Origin: Escherichia phage Eps7
DNA length: 64,000 nt
Sequence record: NC_010583.1
Reading direction: 5' to 3' (one strand)
Notes under the pieces: model-generated
Told to the model about the DNA's origin: nothing
Seen by the model: the letters and a program-made list of their open reading frames with translations, nothing else
Databases searched by the model: none
Made by a program: the position numbers and the translations under genes
Shown: piece by piece, positions 3,301 through 62,901 of the stretch
Position numbering within the stretch: the stretch's first letter is position 1
Layout of the letters: every line of letters starts with the position of its first letter

Positions 3301-4155
3301 TTACACCGTAAATGGATATGCAATAGCAGGATGGTGTTCATAGCCACGAACAGTAAAATCATCCTTACTTACCCACGTTAATACATCATCCAAAGTTCTA
3401 ATATTTGGATTGATTTCTAAAGTAGGAGGTGCAAAAGGTTCACGATCGAATTGCTTGTGCTCCATCAGAACATTATACTGATCTTCATAGATATGAAGAT
3501 TAATAATCTTTTGACGAGCAATACCTGGCTTAAGACCTGTAATCTGTGCCATAATAGCTAGAAGTGCATAGCATTGCACCATATTAAATACTTGGCCCAG
3601 CAAGAAATCATTAGACCTCTGGAAAGAGTTTAGGTATAGTGTATCACCTAAAATAGAGAATTGATGGGTATGCATACACGGACGTAGGCATCCTTTACGA
3701 AATTCCCCACGGGTTCCAAAAGTTAAAATTTCTCCACGATCGTCAATCCCTCTTTTCAAATTATGATAGACTTTGGCTAACTGATCAAATACCATACCAT
3801 CAGAATTAGTCCAATGACGTCCTTGAACACCATAGACTCGTCCCATATCATCCTCGCCTTTACGGAATGGATTACCTAGCCAGGCAATATTTTCATTTGC
3901 ATTAGCATTCCATGTATTAACACCAATAGCGCGGAATTGTGCTGCTGAGTCGTACCCACGGAGATATCCGATCATTTCCATTATTGCTTGTTTAGCAAAT
4001 GCTTTACGAGTAGTTACTAGCGGCAGTTCTCCTGCTCCTACGTTAAAGGTAAAGTCTGCATCAATAATGGTTAGGCAACGAACCCCTGTTCTAGGATTCG
4101 TTACCCATACACCCTCTTCAAGAATACGTTTTCCAGTTTCAATATATTGCTTCAT
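3301..4155 (-). CDS. thyA: thymidylate synthase
   Basis: active-site region [10 protein letters not shown] (Cys nucleophile) and overall ThyA-like layout; 284 aa. Confidence 0.95.
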
Positions 4156-4680
4156 TTAAATATCACCAATTCTTGTAAGAATGAAAGCGTTTTATCTGCA
4201 TTCTGTCCTGCCACATAGTCCATTCTAGTTGCCATTGAATTATAAGTAATATGATGATGCAGATGTACATCAGCAGATAATGGTGTGGCTGAAGTAATAG
4301 TAGAGATATACGCCATATCTAGATGATTTTTTGACATACATTTCAAGAAGCAGAGTTGCTCCCCCTAATACTACAGTTACCTCTTCCTTGAGAAAATCAG
4401 GCAGACGGTATCCAATGTTGCTTATGCGTGTAGCTGATCTTATAGAGTTCGGTAGTGGTCTATTTGCATAAATAAATAGGTCAGAATCTCCTAGTATTCT
4501 TTTTTGCAGAGTCTCAGGGAATGCTAACCAAGTTCCTGCTCCTACAATAATATTGTCAGGTGCCAGAGAATCCAATGTAGCATAGAAGATATCTAGTTCT
4601 TCTTTGAAAGAACCCCAGGGGAGCTTACCATTGAGGCCGAACTCCCCATTCGGCCCAGTTGCATAGATTGCTGCTATCAT
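4152..4680 (-). CDS. frd: dihydrofolate reductase, interrupted by a frameshift in a homopolymer
   Basis: N-terminal [22 protein letters not shown] and GGATLL motifs; frame is lost at T6 (4327-4332) and a DHFR-like C-terminus resumes in the overlapping 64-aa ORF; total ~166 aa. Confidence 0.8.
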
Positions 4681-5825
4681 TAGAACATATCCTCAAATTC
4701 GTTGCCAAGATCTTTCAGAGTATCAGCAGATGTTTCTGTTACTTGACCTACACGATACGCTGCGCCAATCTGAATCTCTTGCGGAGCAGGTTGTAAAGAT
4801 GTAGTATCCAACCAGTTCATAATCCACGGAATAGGGTTCTTAGTAATTACAGGTAAGTGGCTTGGCCATTCTACACCAATGTGCATAAATGCGTTACGTC
4901 CTACAAAGTAAAGGTATTCTTCAAGCAGTTCTGCGTTCAAACCAATCAGACTGCGGCCTTTAAAGATAAAGTGGCCCCATTCAATCTCAGTTTTCAGAGT
5001 TTTTAGGAGTTGTGTTGGTGCTTTAGCTAATGCTTCATCTACCAGATCTTTATCAAATTGCTGGAACATAATCTGGATGATAGCTTTAGACATTTGAGTA
5101 TGTAGAGCTTCATCTTTAGCGATTAATTGCAGGTTCTTAGCAATACCTTGCAGAATATCGTTCTCTGCTAGAGCAAAGGTACATGCAAAGGATGCGTAGA
5201 ACTGCATTGCTTCCAGACCGTAGATTGCAAAGTAAGCATCTAACAGCTTAGCCTGAGTTTCACGTTTAACTTCAGGGAACTCAGTTTCTGGATAAGTATT
5301 ATCACCACGATGATCACGTACTGCAAGGAAATACTGACCTAACAGATACAATTCATCAAACAGTTCAACAGAATCTGCGATACGTGCAAATGCTTCTTGG
5401 TTTTTAGTTACAGAATCAATAAATTCTGCTGGATCAGTCAGAACGTTACGAATAATATTACTATACGCACGGCTGTGCAGATCTTCGAAGTAGCTCCACT
5501 GCTTGAGCATACCCTCCAATTCAGGACGGCTTACAAGCGGCATAATAGCTGCTTCAGGAGCACGGCTAATGAAAGAATCTGTTTGGGTCTGCCATGCTAA
5601 GTTCAGGAGAGTAATTTCCTGAATATCACGCGGAAGGTTTGGCCATTGTTTCTTATCGGCTTCCAGACTGATTTCAGTTTCAGTCCAAAATTGAGAACGT
5701 TGCAGAAGTGCTAGACGCTCAAGTTCAGGATGTGCTACACGAACGTAATCTGCGATACCAAGAGAATCGCCCAGGAAAAGGTCAGCGTTAGTATGATCCC
5801 AATTCAGGTTTAGTAAAGTAGTCAT
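4680..5825 (-). CDS. nrdB: ribonucleotide reductase class Ia beta subunit
   Basis: collinear with E. coli NrdB (EDLHSRAYS, FYASFA, AKDEALH iron-ligand regions); 381 aa. Confidence 0.95.
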   Translation of the reverse strand: MTTLLNLNWDHTNADLFLGDSLGIADYVRVAHPELERLALLQRSQFWTETEISLEADKKQWPNLPRDIQEITLLNLAWQTQTDSFISRAPEAAIMPLVSRPELEGMLKQWSYFEDLHSRAYSNIIRNVLTDPAEFIDSVTKNQEAFARIADSVELFDELYLLGQYFLAVRDHRGDNTYPETEFPEVKRETQAKLLDAYFAIYGLEAMQFYASFACTFALAENDILQGIAKNLQLIAKDEALHTQMSKAIIQIMFQQFDKDLVDEALAKAPTQLLKTLKTEIEWGHFIFKGRSLIGLNAELLEEYLYFVGRNAFMHIGVEWPSHLPVITKNPIPWIMNWLDTTSLQPAPQEIQIGAAYRVGQVTETSADTLKDLGNEFEDMF

Positions 5826-5856: not shown

Positions 5857-5885
5857 ATTATAGCAAATCTGGTAGCGATTAGCAA
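5857..5885 (-). promoter_or_regulatory. sigma70-type promoter TTGCTA-17-TATAAT upstream of nrdB
   Basis: minus strand reads ACTTGCTAATCGCTACCAGATTTGCTATAAT. Confidence 0.55.
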
Positions 5886-5891
5886 GTAAAA

Positions 5892-6374
5892 TTATAAACT
5901 ATCAAGCTCCAATAGTTTAGCATCGCGCCATTCTATAGCATCCTCTAATTCTTTAAATGTTTTAGTATGTTTTACACCTTTCCTAGCTATTTGGACTTGA
6001 TAAGATCCACTTGCTTTTTGGTGTATATTTTTAATACCTAACTTATTGTCCTTATGTGCTCCAACGTTCTTTCCATTACTAAATCTGTTAGAGGCTAGTA
6101 AATTAATTGCTCTATTATCATGACGTATTCTATTATCATGATCTACTTCTTTTGGGATGTACCCATGCGTAATATAGAATGCTAGGATATGTGCGTAGTA
6201 TTTTGTACCTCTTACCTGCATTACTATGTATCCTGAGCATTTTTCCAAAGAGCCTGCCTCTTTGCCTGCAAACTTAGTATTAAATGATTTATCTTCTCTA
6301 GGTTTGTGGGTAAAGATTCCGGTTTCTGGATTATAGTCAAATAACTCAGCTATTTCTTTGTATTTTTCTTCCAT
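5892..6374 (-). CDS. HNH homing endonuclease with AP2-type DNA-binding domain
   Basis: HILAFYITHGYIP..VDHDNRIRHDNRAINL (HNH) plus GVKHTKTFKELEDAIEWRD (AP2-like); sits between nrdA and nrdB. Confidence 0.8.
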   Translation of the reverse strand: MEEKYKEIAELFDYNPETGIFTHKPREDKSFNTKFAGKEAGSLEKCSGYIVMQVRGTKYYAHILAFYITHGYIPKEVDHDNRIRHDNRAINLLASNRFSNGKNVGAHKDNKLGIKNIHQKASGSYQVQIARKGVKHTKTFKELEDAIEWRDAKLLELDSL

Positions 6375-6429: not shown

Positions 6430-8822
6430 TTATAATTGACAACCACCAGATGCGCATCCAGCAGCAGCTTCCTCTCCTGCACCTCCACCATTTTCAGTGT
6501 TGAAGTTTGCATAATAAAAGGTTTTCCAACCGTACTTAACAGCAGTCATAAAGTCACGAACTACTACTGGGCCGGGAATGATTTCATTCTCGAACTTGGT
6601 GTAGTCATAGTACATATTCGTACTGATAGACTGGCTGAAGAATTTCTGCATGGTTGCTACCCATTTGATCCACTCGATACGATCTACATCATAAGCCAGT
6701 TTATAGCTCATTAATGTATCCCAATCAGTTGCACCTGGAGCAATTGCAATTACTTTATTAACTGCACTACCCTTGATAGATACGATCTTACGGGGCGGTT
6801 CGATAGAGTTAGTAACACCTAGCAGTACAGAGGAACTTTCACCTGGCATCTGAGCAGTCAGAACAGAGTTGCGCATACCATATTTCAGAATATCTGCACG
6901 CAGAGATTCCCAATCCATTTCTAGACCTACAGTTACCAGTTCATCAACAGTTTTCTTGTACGTGTCGATTACCAGAGTTCCTTGCGAAGGCTTAGTACGA
7001 TTAAACCAGTCACATGCACCTTGTTCTTTAGCCAGACGTACAGAGGCTTTATGTAGGAAGTAGGACAGCTTTTCAGCTTCACGGTGAATCCAGTTACGTG
7101 CTTCAACACCTTCGTAAGCCAAACCTTCTGCTGCCATTGCACCTGCTGCGTTCATCAGACCAATACCAACGTTACGACGTTTCTTAGCCGTGTACTTCCA
7201 TAGTTGGGAATGGGTAATCCTGAATCTCGATGATTGTATCAACGAATTTCAGAAGGATGTAGCAAGTTTTCTCCCATTCAGCCAGAGATTCCATGCGGCC
7301 TAGTACAACACCACCTAAGTTACACAGAGATACTTCACCAATATCTTCTGGACGCATATCGTCTAACTGATCTTGGGTTTTATACAGTTCCGTAACGTGA
7401 TGGAATGGACGGGTGGCTGAGTAATTCAACACAAAAGGGTTGGTCATACGAATCGGGTCAAGGAAGTTACCATGACGGTTAGATTCACCAATGTGATGAG
7501 CATACATACGCCCTGTTTCCATACGGATACGTAACCAAGTATCTAGGATTTCTTTTGCAGAGATTCTAGGAGCTGCTGGAATTGTTTTTCCTTCGTGGTC
7601 GATCTTTGTAAGAGAAGCCACACGTTTCTCCGCTGCCACGTAGATTTCTTCAAACTTAGCCTCATCTTCACCATAAAACGCTTCATGAACTTCTGGTGCG
7701 TAGAAGTAGGACATTAGCGTAATATCTTCGTTTTTCAGGTAACGTTTTAACAGAAGGTTGTTAAAGCTCAGAGAATAATCCATCTTATCGATTTTATTCT
7801 CGTCTGTAGCACGTTGCTGCTTAACCTGCATCAACTGAATGATTTCAGGATCGAAGTATGGATAAGACACAGTAGCAGAACCGCCACGGGTTTGCTGAGT
7901 GTTAGCTTTTACTGATCGGTCAATGTGTCGATAATATGGCAGTTTTCCGGAATGCGGGAATGCCCCATTTCGCACCGGATCAGCAATTGATCGGCTTTCA
8001 AGATGATACCCGATTCCCGCTCTGGCTGCGACCATTTTGAAGACGATGTGCTCGGCTGTGTCGATTGAATCCAGCGTGTCAGTGGAATCCACGAGACAGC
8101 AACTAGCAAATCCACGGTCACTAGAGCGCAGGCCAACCAGTGGCGGCGTAGGAACGTTGATTTTGTGGAGCGACATTGCATTGTAGAGGTCGATTGCATC
8201 TAGGATTGTCCAGTTAGGTTGAGATAACATCGCCATTGCCATACCCATGTAGGCAAACTGCGGGGTTTCATAAATTTCACCAGTTGCAATATTACGACGA
8301 GAATACTTGTCGAAGAACTGTTTCAGTCCACCACTGGTGAATAAACGATCGCGATCATGATCAATAACTTGGTTCAGAGCGTCAAACTGATCATCGCTAA
8401 TCCATGCACTCATGTCTTCCCAGCGCCAACACGAACCATATGATCGTGGAAGAAACGCAGAGAAGGGGTTCAAAGGAATCATATAGGCGTTTACGCATCT
8501 GCGCAAGACGTAATTCCTTTGCTACAGTATCATATGCTGGGTTGTCTTTGATAAGACCTTCAGCGGCTTTAATTAACACATCTTGGAGGGTATCGGAATC
8601 TACAACACCTTTTGGTAGATTTTTCTGGGCAGACATAACGACGGCAGACCAACTTACGTCAGTTGCTTTACATGCCCATGCAGCCCAATCATTGAGTTTT
8701 TCAGGAGCAAAGTCCTGAACAGTACCGTCACGTTTAATTACTTTTTCAATACTATGGCTCATTGGGGTTTCCTTTTTGTAGTTATCAGGATTTAGGAAAT
8801 ATTCTACTTTGTTTTGGGTCAT
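6430..8822 (-). CDS. nrdA: ribonucleotide reductase class Ia alpha subunit, split over three frames by single-base indels
   Basis: ATP-cone N-terminus (8397..8822), catalytic core (7184..8506) and C-terminus GIGLMN..CASGGCQL (6430..7242) are collinear with E. coli NrdA; frame breaks at G4 (8465-8468), CCC (8419-8421) and about 7181-7190. Confidence 0.9.
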
Positions 8823-9129: not shown

Positions 9130-9429
9130 TTACACCTTCCCCATATCCTTAAAGATATCGTAGAATGCTTTAGACTCCGGTGAGCGAACGTTGTCGATCA
9201 GTTCGATCATAGAGAAAGGAGAGTTTTCGTACTTCTCATAGACTTCCATAAGAAGTGCTAGACCTGAATCACCCTTGATGTCTTTCTGAGCTATATCCCC
9301 ACAGATAATTAAACGACAATCTTGTCCTACACGAGTCAGGAGACAGATCATTGCTTCAACGGAGATATTCTGAGCTTCATCGACAATTACATAGGAGTTG
9401 TTGAATGTTGCCACGCTTTCTTGAACCAT
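9130..9429 (-). CDS. PhoH-like ATPase, C-terminal half only (Walker B onward)
   Basis: VIVDEAQN, LTRVG, GDIAQKD, SGL and VRS motifs; no Walker A upstream; an out-of-frame ATG with AGGAG RBS lies at about 9463. Confidence 0.65.
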   Translation of the reverse strand: MVQESVATFNNSYVIVDEAQNISVEAMICLLTRVGQDCRLIICGDIAQKDIKGDSGLALLMEVYEKYENSPFSMIELIDNVRSPESKAFYDIFKDMGKV

Positions 9430-11760: not shown

Positions 11761-11789
11761 TGATTTATAAATTTGAGAGGAGAAAGACT

Positions 11790-12284: not shown

Positions 12285-12447
12285 TCTAGAAAACATGCTT
12301 ATGGAGCAGTGGAACTCTGGGTATAATGCTGGGGTGGCTACTTGTATTGCGGGGTTGGATATGCTTATTAAGCAAGAAAAGGTACGTCCAGAAGAAGCAA
12401 TTCTACTCCAAAATATCATCGAAGGATTCAAGCAAGGAATCGTATAA
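12253..12447 (+). CDS. hypothetical protein (64 aa)
   Basis: GGAGGAG RBS 7 nt upstream of ATG 12253; overlaps previous ORF. Confidence 0.4.
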   Translation: MDFLNQNLKNNLENMLMEQWNSGYNAGVATCIAGLDMLIKQEKVRPEEAILLQNIIEGFKQGIV

Positions 12448-13261
12448 TGCGTAGACTAATCGTTGTTAGTGGTGCAGGTTTGAGTGTAGATAGTGGTGTT
12501 CGTGCTTTCCGTACTGATACTGCTAGTGGTAAAGCGTTGTGGGATGATTATGACCTAGAAGAGGTATGTAATATTCATGCCTTTCGTGGTAATTTTACCA
12601 TAAAACTCATATGTTTTACAACAAACGTCGTGAAGAGTTACAAACTGTTGAACCTAACCTAGCTCATTTGCGTATTGGTGAATGGTATAAACGGTATCCA
12701 AATCAAGTGGTAAACCTTACTACCAATGTTGATGATCTAATCGAACGTGCTGGAGTGCCGAGAGAAGATATACTCCATATTCATGGATATCTGAAAGAAA
12801 TTATTGTAGAGCATGCGTTCGACCAGACACGTGATGTTATTGATATTGGGTATAGTTCTATTGATCCAGATGACTTTGATTGGGTTAAACCTAACGTTAT
12901 CTTCTTTGGTGAGGTTGCTCCTGCCTATAAAACAATGTATGAGGTTTTTGATGGTATCACCAGTCATGATATGATCATCATTGTTGGGTGCTCTAACCAA
13001 GTAATTAACTTCTACTGGGAGCTATTTCCTGTTCTGAATCTTACTGCTGCAAAACTTATGGTAGTTAACTATTACGATAGTGCAGTAGCTATGGAACCAG
13101 GCTATCAGGGCATGACTCGTAGTGAAATGTATCAGTTAGAAGAACGTGGTATTCCTTACTGGAGTAAAGGTGCTGTGGATGCCTTTAGTGATCCCGATTT
13201 TATTGCTCGTGTGGAAGCTCATCTAGAAGGTAAACCCTATGTTCAACAAAAGCATGTGTGA
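12447..13261 (+). CDS. Sir2-family NAD-dependent deacetylase / ADP-ribosyltransferase-like protein, frameshifted
   Basis: VVSGAGLSVDSGVRAFR (GAGxS..SG..FR), TTNVDDLIERAG, HG, KPNVIFFGE, IIVGCS motifs; frame break at T4 (12594-12597). Confidence 0.8.
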
Positions 13262-18540: not shown

Positions 18541-18549
18541 AAATTTTAT

Positions 18550-30473: not shown

Positions 30474-30545
30474 ATACACATAAATTTGAGAGAGAAAGTT
30501 TCGGATTGATAAGAAAGTCCGAAGCAGAAAAAATAAAAATTGTAC

Positions 30546-36640: not shown

Positions 36641-36718
36641 TTTAGTAAGGAGTTGTTTTACTAATTCCTTTATTTTATTAATCTTTTTTTTTTTGAAAGG
36701 GTGCAAAACGAACCTCTT

Positions 36719-36748
36719 GCATTTTGCATTTTGCATTTTGCGTTTTCA
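36719..36748. repeat. tandem heptamer (GCATTTT) x4 next to a T11 tract at the convergent early/late junction
   Basis: TTGCATTTTGCATTTTGCATTTTGCGTTTTC; T11 run at about 36684-36694. Confidence 0.6.
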
Positions 36749-40260: not shown

Positions 40261-42319
40261 TTACCTTATATGGATATACCCACTATTTAGGTCTATCTTC
40301 ATCTTGTAGTATGCTTCAGGGTTTCCTGATAACGCAGCATTTCTATCGTAGATTATATTAACACCTATTTGTGATAAGAAGGCATTTCCTGCCACAATCT
40401 TATCAGCAGTTACAGTTCCATTAACAATCATGTTGCCATGAAGAACCATTGCAGGGTTAATCCATCCAGCCCCGTTCCATTGACGGGTAAATGCTGTTTG
40501 TGGAGCATTACTGTTAAATTGTGTTAGAACATCGTATTTAACCGGAGGTTTTCCAAAGTTATTTTGAAAGAATGCGTTAGCTTGTCCATCATCCCAACCG
40601 CCTAATCCAGGAATACCCATGGAGTACATCCCAGGACCACGCTGTCCATCATGTCCTATAGTACCTTCAGTACCACTCCATTGAACTACATCAGACCAGC
40701 TAGTACCTTCAAGAAGTTTGTTAGTAACTGGATCAAGTGTACCTGTAGTCGCATAGATATTTTGTGTCATATCTGTACGATTAGGTGGAGTTTTTGACCA
40801 ACCAGGAGGTGGATAATCTTGTTCTAACGGTTTGGCCGGTAAAGATGTTGCTAACTTATAAACAAATACTGTTTGCTTACCTTGTAAACCAGTTCCAATA
40901 TCTACGTCACCATTTGGTGTTCCAATTACTACACCACTAGAAATACGCAGAGTAGTACCATCATAACGTATCCATTGTGTAGCATTACCAATGTCTAACT
41001 TAGCTTTGGCAGAGGTATTATCCATACCCATCCAAATACCAGAGTTATTATCTCCCCAAGATTTACCTTGAGTATAAATTGCTGGATTATCTTTACCAGA
41101 TAAGTTAGTCATGATAAAGTTCGCAGCATTAATATCTCTAGTAATTACTTTACCATCGACGTTAACAACACGATTTATAGGGTCGAAAGAAATAGGTGCT
41201 TTTCCTTCTTCATCTAGCAGACCAATGTTAATAGCACCAGTAGCTGCATCAATTAAGAATGTCTGTCTCCAGATTTCTCCATCTTTCATACTACCCTTAA
41301 TAAAGGCATAGTTAACATCAATACCAGTCTCATTGACAAAACTATTATCTAGAGGAGTATCTTCATTCAATATAAATGTTACAGGAGCTGATTCTGTTAT
41401 ATCTTGCTTATTTGGTCCCCAGGCAATTGATGAAACCTTAAAGGTATGTTCAACTTTCCATGGGAATGATATAATCGTTGCAGCTCTAGCAGCACCCACG
41501 TTTATCTTTTGAGCTTTAGCCCATCCGGTTTTAGCGTATTCCTCGGAGTTTATATAAGTAACCAAGAACTCACGAACGTTAGCACCAGCACCACGTTCCC
41601 ATTCCCACTCAATTCTAACATCATATCGTTCTTTACCATCAGCAATTCGTGCAGCTTTAAAAACAATATCGATAGGTGCAGTAGGTGGAACAAAGTTATA
41701 AGCTACAGTTAGAATATTAGGAAACTCGTAGTATCCTGAAGAATCAACTGTAACACCATCAGGCATAGTTACTTGACCAGATATTCTGATCTTATAGTCT
41801 CCGATAGGAACTCCACCAAATTTAATAGTAGAACCTAAAGCCCCAATATAATATTTAGTCCAAGGACTGTCTTCAGTGGCTGTACTTTTTAACTCAATAG
41901 TACAGTAACTTGCTTCACCAGTTGTTTCCACAACAACTATCGGTGCGCCCACCCCAACATCCACAGGTTCTGACTCAGATCTTGCTGCGACAATTATTGG
42001 CTTCTCTTTTGTTTTAAAGTTAGTTTCATTAGAGAGGTTAATACCAATTTTTGCATTTAAAAGTTCTGAGTCAATAATCGAGTCATAAAAAAGCTCCCTG
42101 AACCTGATAGGTAGTTGAGGGAGTTAAATTATTGATCATAACAAAGAAAGTGTCGATTCCAGTGAAATCTCTTCTATCCACTTCTTCGCCAAGTTTAAGC
42201 CAGAATGATCTACCGATAACATCGTAGTCGGTATAGATAGAATGCTGGATATACGCCATCGTATACCCAGTCATAATACTATTTAAGACCATCTTGGCTG
42301 GTGCATTATTCGAAATCAT
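40261..42319 (-). CDS. baseplate/tail-tip protein pb4-like, frameshifted
   Basis: 78-aa and 567-aa ORFs join into ~686 aa if the A6 run (42087-42092) is read as A5. Confidence 0.7.
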
Positions 42320-45887: not shown

Positions 45888-48800
45888 TTAAGAATTACCA
45901 AGTGATTTCAGGGTGGTTCCATTCTCATTAAGAGCCTGTTCCACGGCATCCCTGAAAGCAGCACTGTTACTCGAAGCAAAGTCTCGGAAGCTAGCCGCAT
46001 CCATCGTACTGATGTTCAGCACAATAGGCCTACCCGATGTACCCTTTGAAGATCCTTTGAGTTCATCAGTAGGAGTAGCCTTCATCGGAACCATAGGAGT
46101 GATTACTTCGGTACCATGCTCACCCATCTGGTAACTAACTCCAGGGTACATATTACCACCTTCTGCACGAGGTACGAAAGAGTTCGCATTACCAATCCCT
46201 TGATCTCCTCGAATATAAGAAAGTTCTCCTGCGTTAGCCGACATAGAAACGTCTACGTTCTTCTGGCGCTCTCCAAGAGACAAGTATTGAGCTGTCTCAG
46301 TACCCGAGTCTCCAATAGAAGACATACCAGATGCAGAGGATGCTTGTGCAAGAGACAATGCACCTGCAACACCTGCTGCAATCATAAGAGGGATAGACCA
46401 CGGGTAAGGAACAGCTGTTGCTGCTTGCATCACCGCTACTGCCGTCTGAATTATGATCTGCTTCTTAGCTGCGTCTTGCTGGATCTTAACCTTTTCCGCT
46501 TCCAGTTTCTTGAGCTTAGCTTTAGATGCTTCGGATTTACCGTCACGTTTTTGCTCTGCTGCAATAGCCTGGTCAATAGCTGATACTTGATTACTTACTC
46601 CCATAGCAATCATTGAAGAAACCATCTGCATACCTGCCGCCACAGTGCTAACAGTATCTAAAGATCCCTGAGAGAACTGCATCATGGCATTAGTAAGATT
46701 TCCCATACTCTGGCCAACTTCCGTTGCTTGGCTATTTAATGCTCCAAGTTTAGAAATAGCTTCGTCGTAAGAGGCCATCTGGTTCTGCATATCAGCATAC
46801 TTCTTATCATCCCCAGATAAACCAGTCGTAGGAGTATAAGTAGCTCCAACAGAAGAACCTACCTGTTGCTGCATCTGAGCATTACGTTGTGCTGTTAAAG
46901 CCGACATCTGAGCCCTTGTCTTGGCTATTTCAGCATTCCAGCGCATTTGCTCGTTAGCATTACCTTTGGTAAGTTCTTTCATCTTGGTATAAAAATCTAA
47001 CTGCATTTCCATTTTTTTGCATTTCCCCTGCCAGAGGGAACATGGAAGTTAGAGTATTTTCAAAGGCTTCTTGCCTTTTACTGGTCATTTCAGCTTGCTG
47101 GTCTTGGCGGAATTTCCAGATTTCACGCCCTATCTGTGCTTGAGCACGTCTTGATTGTTCAGCTTCTTTCTGCTTATCAGCTTGTTTTGTATACCATTCG
47201 TACTTCTCTTTTTCAATAGTCAATTCAAGATTTAACTGTGCTAGACGATACTGAGTATCTGTCATAGTACGGTTATTTAAGAGAGCTATTTCACGATCAA
47301 CACCAAGAATCTTATCCGTATAGTCCTTAACTTTCTTCTGAGCTTCCATGTCCTGGTTAGTAATTTTGATACGTTCTAACTGAACCTTAGCTATTTCATT
47401 CTCAATTGCCTTGTTACCTTTGTTAGTTTCTAGGACACGCTTAAGAGCTGCTTCCTGTTCTTCTAACTGTTGGATTTCTAGACGTCTACCCGCTTCCTGT
47501 GCTTTCTCTTTATCCTTGGTCTGGTTGTACACTTCGGCAATCTTTTGCTGAACTTCTAGCTGATTTTTAGTCTCATTACTAGTTAATTTTACATAACCAG
47601 CAAGAGCTTGTGAGGCAGTCTTCATCTCACTAAGAGTATTATACCCTAAGTTCAGACTCTTAACATACTCATCAGCATTTTTACCAGTGCCGGCAGATAG
47701 AGACTCAATAGTCTTAATCGTATCCGATAGGGATGCACTAGTTTTAGCCGCAGTATTAGTATTTTCGGCAATGTTCTGGATATCGTTAGCTAAATCACTA
47801 GCAGTTTTCTTAGCCTGATCATATGCTTTCTGCTGTTCCGTCAGTCCTTTCAGAGTTGCGGAGTTAAAGTCATAAACCGCATCAGGGTCATTCATATCCT
47901 TCTGCAGATTAATCTGCTTCTGAAATTCTGGATTAGTCTTAGCAGCCGCAGCACCAGCAGCTTGATACGCAGATTTCCAAGCATTAAGGTTTTCAGTAGA
48001 GTCATCAACTTCTTTACCTAACCTTGCTACCTGTAGTCCCATAGCTGCGGTTTCTTCTACAAACTTTTTGTTAGCTTCGGAAGAACCTATGCGCACTCCC
48101 CCTACTTCAAATCCCCCAGCAGCTAATCCAACAGGCATTCCCTCACCCACTAATCTAATAGCGGCAGCAGTACTAGCATCTGCTTGGGACATACGTTTAT
48201 CAAACTCAGTCTTTAGTTTATTACGCTTATCCAGAGACTCTTTATACATATCAAGAGCTTTATTATATCCTTCCTCGGAAGCGGAAAGACTTAAAGCTAC
48301 AGCACCAACGTTAGTTGGGTCAATCTGACGGTTAGTTTCTTCTTGTGCTCTAGCAGCAGAAGCCGAGATAGATGCTTGAGAAGTATAGAATACTGCGTTA
48401 ATAGAATCAATTACCGGCCCTAAATACTTAGCAGCAGCCTGTTGAACCTTTCTTAGTGCAGCATCAGCGTTAGCAGCAAACTGTTCCCATGGAGTTGCAC
48501 GGAGTACGTCATCCAAGTAGCCGAAACGTTTAGTAGATTCAGCAATTACTGCGTTAGCATATGCTTGTTGCTTTTGGAAAGTGGAAAGACTATTGACGTT
48601 ATATGTGATACCTGTGTTAGCAGCATTTAACTGTTTAACGTAGTCAGCGTAAGCATCATTAAGACGAATAGTAACACCAAGTTCGTCCAGAAGTTCGATT
48701 TCTTGTTTAGATACACCTTTGATTACACGGTTAAGTGCATCAGTCATATCAACACCAAGAACAGCAGCAGCACGACGGGCTACTAGACCAAATTTATTAA

Positions 48801-52850: not shown

Positions 52851-53337
52851 TTATCTGCGAAGTGCCCTACGAGGTGGCTGATACCTCACTGTTACATTTA
52901 TTTCCGCTAAACCATATGGGGCCAGTAGACCTTCATCTGTAGCTACTGAGGTAATGCTCATATCAGTTGCCTCACATGGGAAGGTCGATCCATTAGGTTT
53001 ACTAACAGTATATTCTAAATTTCCACCTGTGTCAATGACGGTTTTTTATGTCAGCTACGAGTTTTTCAAGTTGCTCTTGAATATCTGTTTTCTCTTTGTC
53101 ATACACGAAGATTGGAAGTTCTAAAAACATCCACTGTTGGCCTGAAGGAAGATACTGCCCAGTTTCAGTTCCGATATGGACTGCCACATAAGGAAATTCT
53201 CGGATTTCCTCAAATTTATAAGTTTGACGAGAAACGTTTCCATAAAGGTTATTGAAATACTCGTCAGGTTGTGAACCATCCATTTGTGTGGCGATTCGGT
53301 CAACCACTGCTTGTGCAATACTTGTTCTGTGATCCAT
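52851..53337 (-). CDS. neck/tail-terminator protein candidate, probably frameshifted
   Basis: 101-aa ORF continues 58 codons to the pb6 RBS if the T6 run (53042-53047) is read as T5. Confidence 0.4.
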
Positions 53338-56709: not shown

Positions 56710-57192
56710 TTAAGCCTCCGGCGCAGGGTTGATAGTTGTTACGCACTCGTTAGAAGTAATAGAAGTAGATTTACTATCCGTTACAACAACTTTGTAAGTA
56801 CCAGCATCTTCTGCAGCAGCTGTAGCTTTGTTGAAATTAGGACCAGTAACACCACTAAGTGGAGAACCGTCTTTAGTCCAAGCATAAGTATATGGTGCAG
56901 TACCACCAGTAACTGTTACGCCCAGATTAATTGCTGCACCAGTATCAACAGCTAGAGTTTTAGCCAGATTCTTCGTGAAAGCTAGAGCCGGAACAACCGG
57001 AGCAGTAACTTCGTATACTTCTTTGAACTTATTCCAAACCTTGCGGTTGGTATGTGCAGTGGTCATTCCAAACTCTTTACGTAGAGTAGCGTAGTTTGGA
57101 ACGAACTTGTGTGCTGCAACCGTAGCAAAGAAGATATGAGATTCTGGCAGCTTTTCACCAAAAATGGCCTTTAGACCATCATAATCAATCAT
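56710..57192 (-). CDS. capsid decoration protein candidate with C-terminal Ig-like domain (pb10-like)
   Basis: 160 aa; C-terminal Ig-like region GTYKVVVTDS. Confidence 0.55.
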   Translation of the reverse strand: MIDYDGLKAIFGEKLPESHIFFATVAAHKFVPNYATLRKEFGMTTAHTNRKVWNKFKEVYEVTAPVVPALAFTKNLAKTLAVDTGAAINLGVTVTGGTAPYTYAWTKDGSPLSGVTGPNFNKATAAAEDAGTYKVVVTDSKSTSITSNECVTTINPAPEA

Positions 57193-58406: not shown

Positions 58407-58946
58407 TATAAGAACCTTGCGAATCCTGATTTAGTTTCAGTCTTGACTTGTGTCTTTTCTTGAGGATTCTGTAGCTTTTCCTTTTGTTTAAGAACCCATG
58501 CCTTCTGCTTATTAGCAGAGAAAAGGGGAGGTTCTTTAGTGTACACCTTATGTAATAGTTGGTGATGGTGGACACAAAGGGTAACAGTGTCATCTACTAG
58601 CTCATGCCTATATCTTTCATAGAATGCCGTCCTATTTGAGAGGACTGTTTCTTCGTCAGTGAAATCCAACTGGAGTTCTTTAGCAAATTTTTTAACTAGT
58701 AGAGACACTGTATGGTAATGATGAAGCTCTAATTCTTCACCACAACCACAGATTTCGCAGCGATCGGCTTTTTTTATATTGACTTTTTATACCGTCTCGC
58801 ATGAGTGATATAGCATCACGTTTATATTTTACATTTCCTGCCACAGTATTCTCCTCAACTGTATGAATATAGTATACATAATCATGTCGAATTTGTAAAG
58901 GGATTTTAAAATGCAGGAATGGGATACCAACTGAGTAGTATCCCAT
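58406..58946 (-). CDS. HNH endonuclease, frameshifted
   Basis: CEICGCGEELELHHYH ... LCVHHHQLLH motifs restored if the T7 run (58769-58775) is read as T6. Confidence 0.65.
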
Positions 58947-60860: not shown

Positions 60861-62548
60861 TTACCAAGGTTTTTTATTATAAATATATCCATTTCTACGA
60901 AAAGCCATCTCATCAGGTCTACTAGCCCACGTTTGGGTATAGCTATATGAAGTTGTACTGTGATATGGTACTAGATAGCCAGGTGGCAGAGTAAGAATCT
61001 GATGAAATACACCATCACCAGCTGTATAACTTTGTTGACGTCTACCTTGTACCTGCCAAGCACTACCACCGTAAGTACGTACAGGCATACCAGCAGTATT
61101 AAGATTACCCATAATAACTTCAGTAGTTAATATAACAGTAGAGTGAGCATTTGGTAATCCCAACCAAACTGTAGCCAAAGGTGTGTAGAAGTCACCAGCA
61201 CCAGGGTAGGATGGAGTTATATCATCCCCAACATAAGTACTCGCAACGTTGCCTGGGAATAATCTAAGTGGTACGGTACTAGGACTCCATACAGGGCCAT
61301 GCTCATTACCTATAGAGTTGGTATTAGTATCTACATACCACTGTTTACCAACACCAAATTTATAAAGGCTAATTTGAGAAGCAGCACCCCCATAGTTAAC
61401 AGGAGACCACAAACCCCCATTACTAGAGCCGATAAATTCACATCGTGCAGTATTATCACCAAAAACTCCGGTATACGCGGTATTATTACCAACATACTCC
61501 ATATCAGGGCGATAACCTAAGTTTCCAAAAGCATTCTGGTTAATAAATTTATAGCCTGAGTTGGGTAAGCTAACACCTTTAATAGTAAAGTTAGATGGAG
61601 ATATCAGGATATCTGAACCAGTAAATGGATTACCAGAAATCCCCATACTACCATTAGAATAGCGTAGATTTAGCACATACCAAATAACTTTAGTAGGTGT
61701 AACATTATACCAGTCTTGCACATATACCTTTCTAGCTGACTGAGCAGCCATATTAGAAGTAGAACCTCTACAAACATATATTTTTTCTGGGTATGCAGGA
61801 GATTGGTAAAGAACGTTTACGTTATCTGGTAGTACTACCTTTTTTTACCGGCAAAGCCACGAATATTGGAACTACAAACGTAAAACCAATCATGACCTCT
61901 ACCAGCAGACCCGATAGGCGCTTGCCAGTTAGGCTCCCAATAGTCTGCATTACCACCATCTATAGGAACTGTAGATACACCCGTTGGAAAGCCCATTAAT
62001 CCCCAGGCTCTAGAAATAGCTTCACCAGCAGAAACACCACCAGGTCTAAAGATCTGGAAACCGGAAGATTGTAGCAAAGTACCGCCAGTTCCTTGTCTAG
62101 CAATAGATTCCTCATGACCTAGGCTACCATTATAAATATAGGTACCATGAGCTAAACTATCACCGATTGCAAAGGCAGATGTTATTGCCAATTCAGCACC
62201 AGCACGTGGTTGGTCTTCAAAGAATGTTAAAAACTGGCCAACCTGAGATTGTGTACCATTAAGGAAACCCCTATGAGTACCGTTTATCTCAATAGCAGTT
62301 AATATAACTCTACCAGGATCATTGGATTTAATGTTTATAATATCCCAAGGCATCTGAGTAACAAAATACCCATTACCTGCATCACCTAGAGCAGCCTCGT
62401 AAGTCCCATCAACTAGGACAAATGGCATATCTGAGTGGAAGATACTATTAGTATTTGGAGAGTAGTGCTGATTTATATCACCACCATTAGCAGCGTTTAG
62501 AGATAATACAGTTTTACCATCACTAAATTTTCCTGCGAAAAAACTCAT
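60861..62548 (-). CDS. receptor-binding tail protein (functional analogue of T5 pb5/Oad), frameshifted
   Basis: 237-aa and 296-aa ORFs join (~560 aa) if the T7 run (61840-61846) is read as T8; divergent from an Llp-like lipoprotein gene. Confidence 0.6.
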
Positions 62549-62631: not shown

Positions 62632-62901
62632 ATGAAAAAGTTACTAGCCATCGTAGTTGCAGCAGCAGTAGTGTTGACGGGTTGTGTACCAGCTCCCGAG
62701 CCATTCTGTAAGGCATACGTGAAGTCTTATGGTCATGTTGGTGAAGAACACTATGCTTTAGATATTCGAGAAGCACGTACTGTGGGCTACCGATTCCCTA
62801 AAACTCAGTTACGCACTAAGTTTGGGTGGTGGGATTTGTCACAGTTTGCTCTCAAATATGGCGATTGCAAATTTAAACTAGAACAATCTGGTCACTTGTA
62901 A
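62632..62901 (+). CDS. llp: Llp-like lipoprotein (putative receptor-blocking superinfection-exclusion protein)
   Basis: signal peptide MKKLLAIVVAAAVVLTGC with LTGC lipobox; 89 aa; divergent from the receptor-binding protein gene. Confidence 0.75.
   Translation: MKKLLAIVVAAAVVLTGCVPAPEPFCKAYVKSYGHVGEEHYALDIREARTVGYRFPKTQLRTKFGWWDLSQFALKYGDCKFKLEQSGHL

Follow-up and report, generated by a model that had tools for sequence, protein, structure and literature searches.

The dihydrofolate reductase (DHFR) gene, frd, in the sequence record of Escherichia phage Eps7 (NC_010583.1) is split by one surplus base, and with a probability of about 0.9 this base is a sequencing or assembly error, as we infer from the assembled sequence rather than from reads. 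The window analysed, a 64,000-nt stretch of this record, carries frd on the minus strand at 4152..4680, and the reading frame is lost in a run of six T residues (A6 on the coding strand). In the phage itself, frd is most likely intact, with five A residues (A5) in the coding-strand run and a product of 175–176 residues. The surplus base would then be a base-calling or assembly error, one of about 27 indel errors in the 64-kb record. The identity of the gene, the restriction of the extra base to this record and a window-wide excess of frame-breaking indels are all directly observed.

The limits of frd on the minus strand are an ATG at 4680-4678 and a TGA at 4154-4152. As recorded, translation from this ATG yields an ORF of 136 residues (ORF1; 4270..4680, minus strand), which is composed of 117 native DHFR residues, a Lys and 18 out-of-frame residues, and ends at a TGA at 4272-4270. 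The C-terminal 58 codons and the stop codon (N118 to K175; 4152..4328, minus strand) are found in the +1 frame. Deletion of one A from the run gives an open 175-residue reading frame. An alignment of frd with the corresponding genes of Salmonella phage 3-29 and Escherichia phage SuperGirl places a single-base gap exactly at the run (4327..4332), which is A6 in the window and thus one base longer than the A5 of these closest relatives. With 25 A6/T6 runs in the window, a T6 is not unusual by itself; the frame break, however, coincides both with such a run and with the sole frame-changing indel of frd, and this coincidence is non-random. A preliminary description of the region had assigned a DHFR gene to 4152-4680 and had located the loss of frame at 4327-4332, and both assignments are borne out by the present analysis. 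Its DHFR-like N-terminus was likewise correct in kind, with the length revised from 110 to 117 residues, and the DHFR-like C-terminus is indeed encoded in another frame, although, read in the direction of translation, this is the +1 and not the −1 frame owing to one surplus base, and a +1 shift or a 1-nt deletion is what would restore it. Whereas an intact orthologue is a single ORF of 174–178 residues between nrdB and thyA, the record holds a 136-residue product and a 58-residue remainder at this position.

The window is a segment of a T5-like phage (Demerecviridae, Markadamsvirinae, Epseptimavirus). In a megablast search with a 25-kb query, at least 80% of the query was covered in 365 phage records, with a best identity of 97–98%. 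Its nrdB-frd-thyA genes form a conserved nucleotide-metabolism block, and the gene order nrdA-nrdB-frd-thyA is the same in close relatives, in which the orthologue is annotated as dihydrofolate reductase and has 531 nt and 176 residues. On the upstream side of frd lies nrdB, which encodes the small subunit of a class Ia ribonucleotide reductase (4680..5825, minus strand; Pfam PF00268, Ribonuc_red_sm, E = 1.7e-35) and whose TAA stop codon overlaps the frd ATG by 1 nt (TAATG). On the downstream side, the ATG of the thymidylate synthase gene thyA (3301..4155, minus strand; Pfam PF00303, Thymidylat_synt, E = 2.9e-64) overlaps the frd TGA (ATGA) and is preceded by a Shine-Dalgarno-like GGTGA. The Epseptimavirus DHFR genes of 3-29 (QAU04657.1), SuperGirl (QXV84618.1) and PSa2 occupy the same position between nrdB and thyA, and their stop and start codons overlap in the same way. 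A promoter and terminator scan revealed no terminator inside the nrdB-frd-thyA block, and the sole plausible promoter is located upstream of nrdB. This sigma-70-like match (5857..5885, minus strand; TTGCTA-17-TATAAT with a TG) may serve as the promoter of an nrdB-frd-thyA unit. Between nrdB and nrdA, the window also contains a 160-residue ORF (5892-6374, minus strand) that matches the HNH_3 family of homing endonucleases (Pfam E = 4.7e-9). This ORF, a mobile gene that is polymorphic for its presence among these phages, is missing from 3-29 and present in the relative SB6, where two homing endonuclease ORFs are annotated.

The assignment of frd as a DHFR gene is based on a PHROG match, the predicted fold, sequence motifs and synteny, because the matches from the Pfam, NCBIfam and PDB sequence searches are weak. 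For the repaired protein, the match to PHROG 316 ("dihydrofolate reductase") has an E value of 1.8e-31 and 110 bits over residues 1–161, a stretch that spans the break at residue 117. Against Pfam PF00186 (DHFR_1), the repaired protein scores 20 bits (E = 5.9e-4), which is below the gathering threshold of 25 bits; ORF1 alone scores 17.9 bits, and a search of PF00186 with the C-terminal fragment returned no match. All NCBIfam matches, which are to Dfr families, are sub-threshold, and the PDB sequence search gave one marginal match (E = 0.0099). No precomputed Pfam domain is present in the 24 full-length homologues (P0001–P0024) either, and the weak Pfam score is a trait of the whole T5-like DHFR family. 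These homologues extend down to 58% identity, and every one is a single ORF of 174–178 residues. The repaired protein is 97–98% identical to the annotated DHFRs of close relatives, such as that of Escherichia phage PSa2 (P0001). Among 19 family members, L20-P21-W22, E27/E28 and G106-G107 are invariant, and we take these to be the LPW motif, the catalytic acidic residue and the GG of the NADPH site. In a solved DHFR of 186 residues (PDB ID: 3k45), the catalytic Glu is the residue that aligns with E28. Invariant residues are also found past the break, at S126, A136, D137, L140, F167, Q169 and E170.

The predicted structure leads to the same assignment. An AF2 model built on the 19-sequence family alignment has a pLDDT of 81.4 and a pTM of 0.79, in contrast to an unusable single-sequence model (pLDDT of 35). 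A Foldseek search of the PDB with the alignment-based model returned 384 matches at E ≤ 1e-3, and all 50 of the 50 matches listed are DHFR or DHFR-TS structures. The top match, 2w3w, has an E value of 7.5e-11 and TM scores of 0.75/0.79 over 174 columns. The model predicts the central mixed β-sheet of the DHFR fold over the whole chain, with the C-terminal part contributing strands 122–130, 151–159 and 165–173 to this sheet. Loss of the frame at residue 117 would remove these three strands, and the fold would therefore be out of reach of the 136-residue product. In comparison with chromosomal-type (type I) DHFRs, a group that includes Escherichia coli FolA and the mycobacterial and vertebrate enzymes (PF00186), the model aligns over its whole length, with TM scores of 0.75–0.79 to 2w3w, 8f83 and 6uwq. 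The phage protein shares with this type the N-terminal LPW, the acidic E28 and the GG motif (VLGGA). It differs in its low identity to solved DHFRs (14–19%) and in its length of 175 residues, compared to 159 in E. coli FolA. The frd locus is most simply described as an ordinary, already known DHFR gene of a T5-like phage, with a predicted enzyme activity.

The A6 allele was found only in the window. None of 200 phage records that match a 69-nt segment across the run carries A6, and the best of them, identical at 68/69 positions over a 68-nt stretch, has A5. A 37-mer containing A6 had no exact match in viral, genome or metagenome contigs; the A5 version of the same 37-mer, used as a control, was found in three viral contigs. 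There is no conservation of the run, either: SB6 reads AATAAT there, and the homologues have K, N, H or Y as residue 117. Over approximately 560 nt, the frd genes of 3-29 and SuperGirl are identical to that of the window at every nucleotide but for two sites, both of which are unique to the window record. One is the extra A. The other, which the preliminary description had overlooked, is a net −3-nt change at 4242..4244 (minus strand), where TAT (Y) stands in place of the TTA ACT (LT) or ATG ACT (MT) of the relatives. The Tyr replaces Leu and Thr at residues 144–145 and leaves a one-residue gap that is present in no homologue. This change occurs in none of 208 records, the best of which is 95.2% identical, with an 84-nt stretch of the record aligned to the 81-nt query. 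A lineage variant was considered as the origin of the change and rejected; the SB6 DHFR is also 175 residues long, but it is shortened at the C-terminus instead.

The extra base in frd belongs to a window-wide pattern. Private indels were called where the window, 3-29 and SB6 all align, and the annotated genes of 3-29 were mapped onto the window. About 27 window-private indels have a length that is not a multiple of 3, with at least 17 in the left 48 kb and about 8 more in the right part. In contrast, 3-29 and SB6 each have no private indel that interrupts a substantial gene. The private indels of these relatives at 18547, 18600 and 20764 are intergenic by gene coordinates, that at 36684/36717 falls in a variable repeat and overlaps only a 41-residue ORF annotated in 3-29, and that at 56712 is within a 3-nt gap separating two genes. 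As a side observation, the repeats at 36684-36730, a poly-T tract (10–15 T) and an adjacent TTGCATT tandem repeat, differ in length among all three phages. The same is true of a 14-nt repeat unit (ATTGCAAATTTAAA) near 62864.

Approximately 12 genes are broken by the indels of the window. One of them, nrdA, which encodes the large subunit of ribonucleotide reductase (6430-8822, minus strand), is split into three ORFs (8822..8397, 8506..7184 and 7242..6430) by six private indels, at 8467, 8423, 7436 (+2), 7427, 7415 and 7197. A Sir2-like gene (12447-13261) is divided into two ORFs (12447..12662 and 12611..13261) by the change of a run at 12597 from T5 to T4, as compared with SB6; the strong divergence of this region from 3-29 points to a mosaic replacement. 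Private frame-breaking indels are likewise observed in the genes for ligase subunit B (22290) and a minor tail protein (51203). Further breaks are found in the genes for a 983-residue tail protein (C5 to C4 at 37423), pb4 (A5 to A6 at 42087), the tape measure protein (a T7 run at 47012), the tail terminator (T5 to T6 at 53046), a 145-residue protein (T6 to T7 at 58769) and the receptor-binding protein (+2 at 61833 and −2 at 60877). Four of these breaks, at 42087, 47012, 53046 and 58769, have the same signature as that in frd, namely a +1 change in an A/T run of at least five bases. A lesion of another kind is present in phoH (9130-9429, minus strand), which has a private deletion of approximately 408 nt at 9406-9415 relative to 3-29 and SB6. 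The deletion takes out the 5′ half of the gene and the region upstream of it, with the microhomology GTTGCCACG at the junction, and reflects either an assembly fault or a deletion that truly took place through the microhomology.

The indels are unevenly distributed. The region from 3.7 to 9.4 kb, which includes frd, holds 11 indel events in addition to the 408-nt deletion, a density about eight times that elsewhere. In thyA, 430 nt downstream, a private +1/−1 pair at 3710/3718, separated by 8 nt, leaves the ORF open. The pair changes the conserved WNP at residues 147–149, which is present in both relatives, to GTR, and it is probably a base-calling error. Compensated clusters of this sort (+1/−1 and −1/−1/+2, within 8–23 nt) look like base-calling artefacts and not like mutation. 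About half of the private indels fall in runs of at least four bases (3718, 4327, 12597, 30528, 37423, 42087, 45859, 47012, 49620, 53046, 58769 and 58900). In A/T runs of at least five bases, counted in the longer state whether of the window or of the relatives, all seven changes that can be classified as insertions are +1. The remaining half are in runs of 1–3 bases or in no run at all (e.g., 8467, 11787, 14994, 22290 and 51203). Of the preliminary claim that the break in frd follows a record-wide homopolymer error pattern, the record-wide part is thus upheld; a purely homopolymer model is incomplete. Private single-base indels also occur between genes, at 30528, 45859, 49620, 58900, 11787 and 14994, and those at 11787, 45859 and 49620 are just upstream of start codons. 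In kind, these do not differ from the indels that break genes.

The substitutions behave differently from the indels. In the 39.8 kb of coding sequence that was aligned, 222 of the 250 substitutions private to the window (89%) are synonymous and 86% fall at third codon positions, and the substitutions of 3-29 show much the same distribution. An explanation of the substitutions as errors was rejected on the basis of this synonymous fraction. The same value indicates normal purifying selection, and only the indels are abnormal. Normal purifying selection does not fit with widespread real gene decay.

A true recent frameshift in frd is an unlikely alternative. According to this explanation, the phage really has A6 and frd is a young pseudogene; the truncated 136-residue product would lack the last three β-strands, and the phage would rely on the FolA of its host. 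The sequence as given does read A6, and real frameshift mutations most often arise through a change in the length of an A/T run. In addition, T4 frd is dispensable, and a phage DHFR is probably so too where the host has its own FolA, in which case a true frameshift at this site would not kill the phage. The Shine-Dalgarno-like GGTGA of thyA also means that a loss of translational coupling need not be fatal. The 177 nt that follow the break retain the sequence of the relatives, except for the one in-frame net −3-nt change, a state that fits a very recent event or an error alike. The absence of A6 from all 200 related records and from the viral, genome and metagenome contig collections argues against a pseudogene, and so does the presence of the same type of lesion in essential tail genes, where no propagating phage could really carry it. 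The life cycle of T5-like phages is strictly lytic, and to be viable a phage needs its tape measure, pb4, tail terminator, minor tail, receptor-binding and 983-residue tail proteins; given the course of T5 morphogenesis, it could not propagate with these tail genes broken, and the indels in them must for this reason be errors. This viability argument applies to the other broken genes and not to frd itself, because a folA+ host probably makes the phage DHFR dispensable. For frd, the comparison of rates is more informative: at least 12 gene-breaking indels are present in approximately 57 kb of coding sequence, compared to none in each of the two relatives, and for a 528-nt gene we estimate that these counts favour error by more than 20:1. 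The indel in frd is private to the record, and similar indels are found in indispensable genes of the same record, as would be the case for an artefact. Less credible than any other explanation considered is a defective or degrading genome, from a mutator lineage or a non-viable variant, with real indels in frd and many other genes. The number of genes affected at once and the additional 408-nt deletion in phoH are in line with this idea. However, a lytic phage with a broken tape measure, pb4, receptor-binding protein and tail terminator could not have reached sequencing depth, the predominance of synonymous private substitutions reveals no relaxation of selection, and the compensated clusters have the appearance of base-calling artefacts.

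A role for the A6 run in recoding is very improbable. In this proposal, the run is a site of +1 ribosomal or transcriptional slippage that gives some full-length DHFR, which would make frd a regulated or phase-variable gene. Runs of A are known slippery sequences, and a +1 slip of tRNA-Lys from A1A2A3 to A2A3A4, a mechanism deduced from the codons at the site, would be followed by AAT CAT CTA and would thereby reproduce the V-K-N-H-L of the relatives. There is accordingly a scant chance that A6 is real and that frd is leaky or switchable, with the wild-type V-K-N-H restored either by a tRNA-Lys +1 slip on A AAA AAT or by an RNA polymerase that drops one A. As in the +1 frameshift of prfB, the −1 frameshift of dnaX and transcriptional slippage in A/T runs, the site is an A run at which a one-base shift restores a functional frame. 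Unlike those sites, the run is short, it is not conserved in relatives and no stimulatory element was detected at it. Six A residues are few for efficient transcriptional slippage or ribosome sliding, and an Rfam scan of the whole window matched no family. The homologues are all single ORFs, with A5 in the closest relatives and AATAAT in SB6. A programmed frameshift was rejected because the site is conserved in no relative. The window-wide indel pattern, moreover, accounts for the site without a special mechanism.

An error in the run, the preferred reading, is chiefly a matter of data quality. Annotation of the record should include neither a DHFR pseudogene nor the approximately 12 other split genes, and the record is unfit for inferring gene loss in T5-like phages until it has been corrected. 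Polishing is needed before annotation, and either frame-aware annotation or polishing with reads would give back an ordinary nrdB-frd-thyA block. If A6 were true, frd would illustrate in a small way how a phage loses an accessory folate enzyme, which is of modest interest since the host supplies FolA.

Beyond the genus, the DHFRs of the Tequintavirus phages T5 and BF23 belong to the same orthologous family (58–62% identity, 174–177 residues), and no frameshift is reported there. According to the authors of the BF23 study, localisation of DHFR to the virion had not previously been reported for T5 (PMC10644984). In BF23, the DHFR (ORF112, 19.7 kDa) is expressed, and proteomics of purified virions detected it with an intense signal (PMC10644984).
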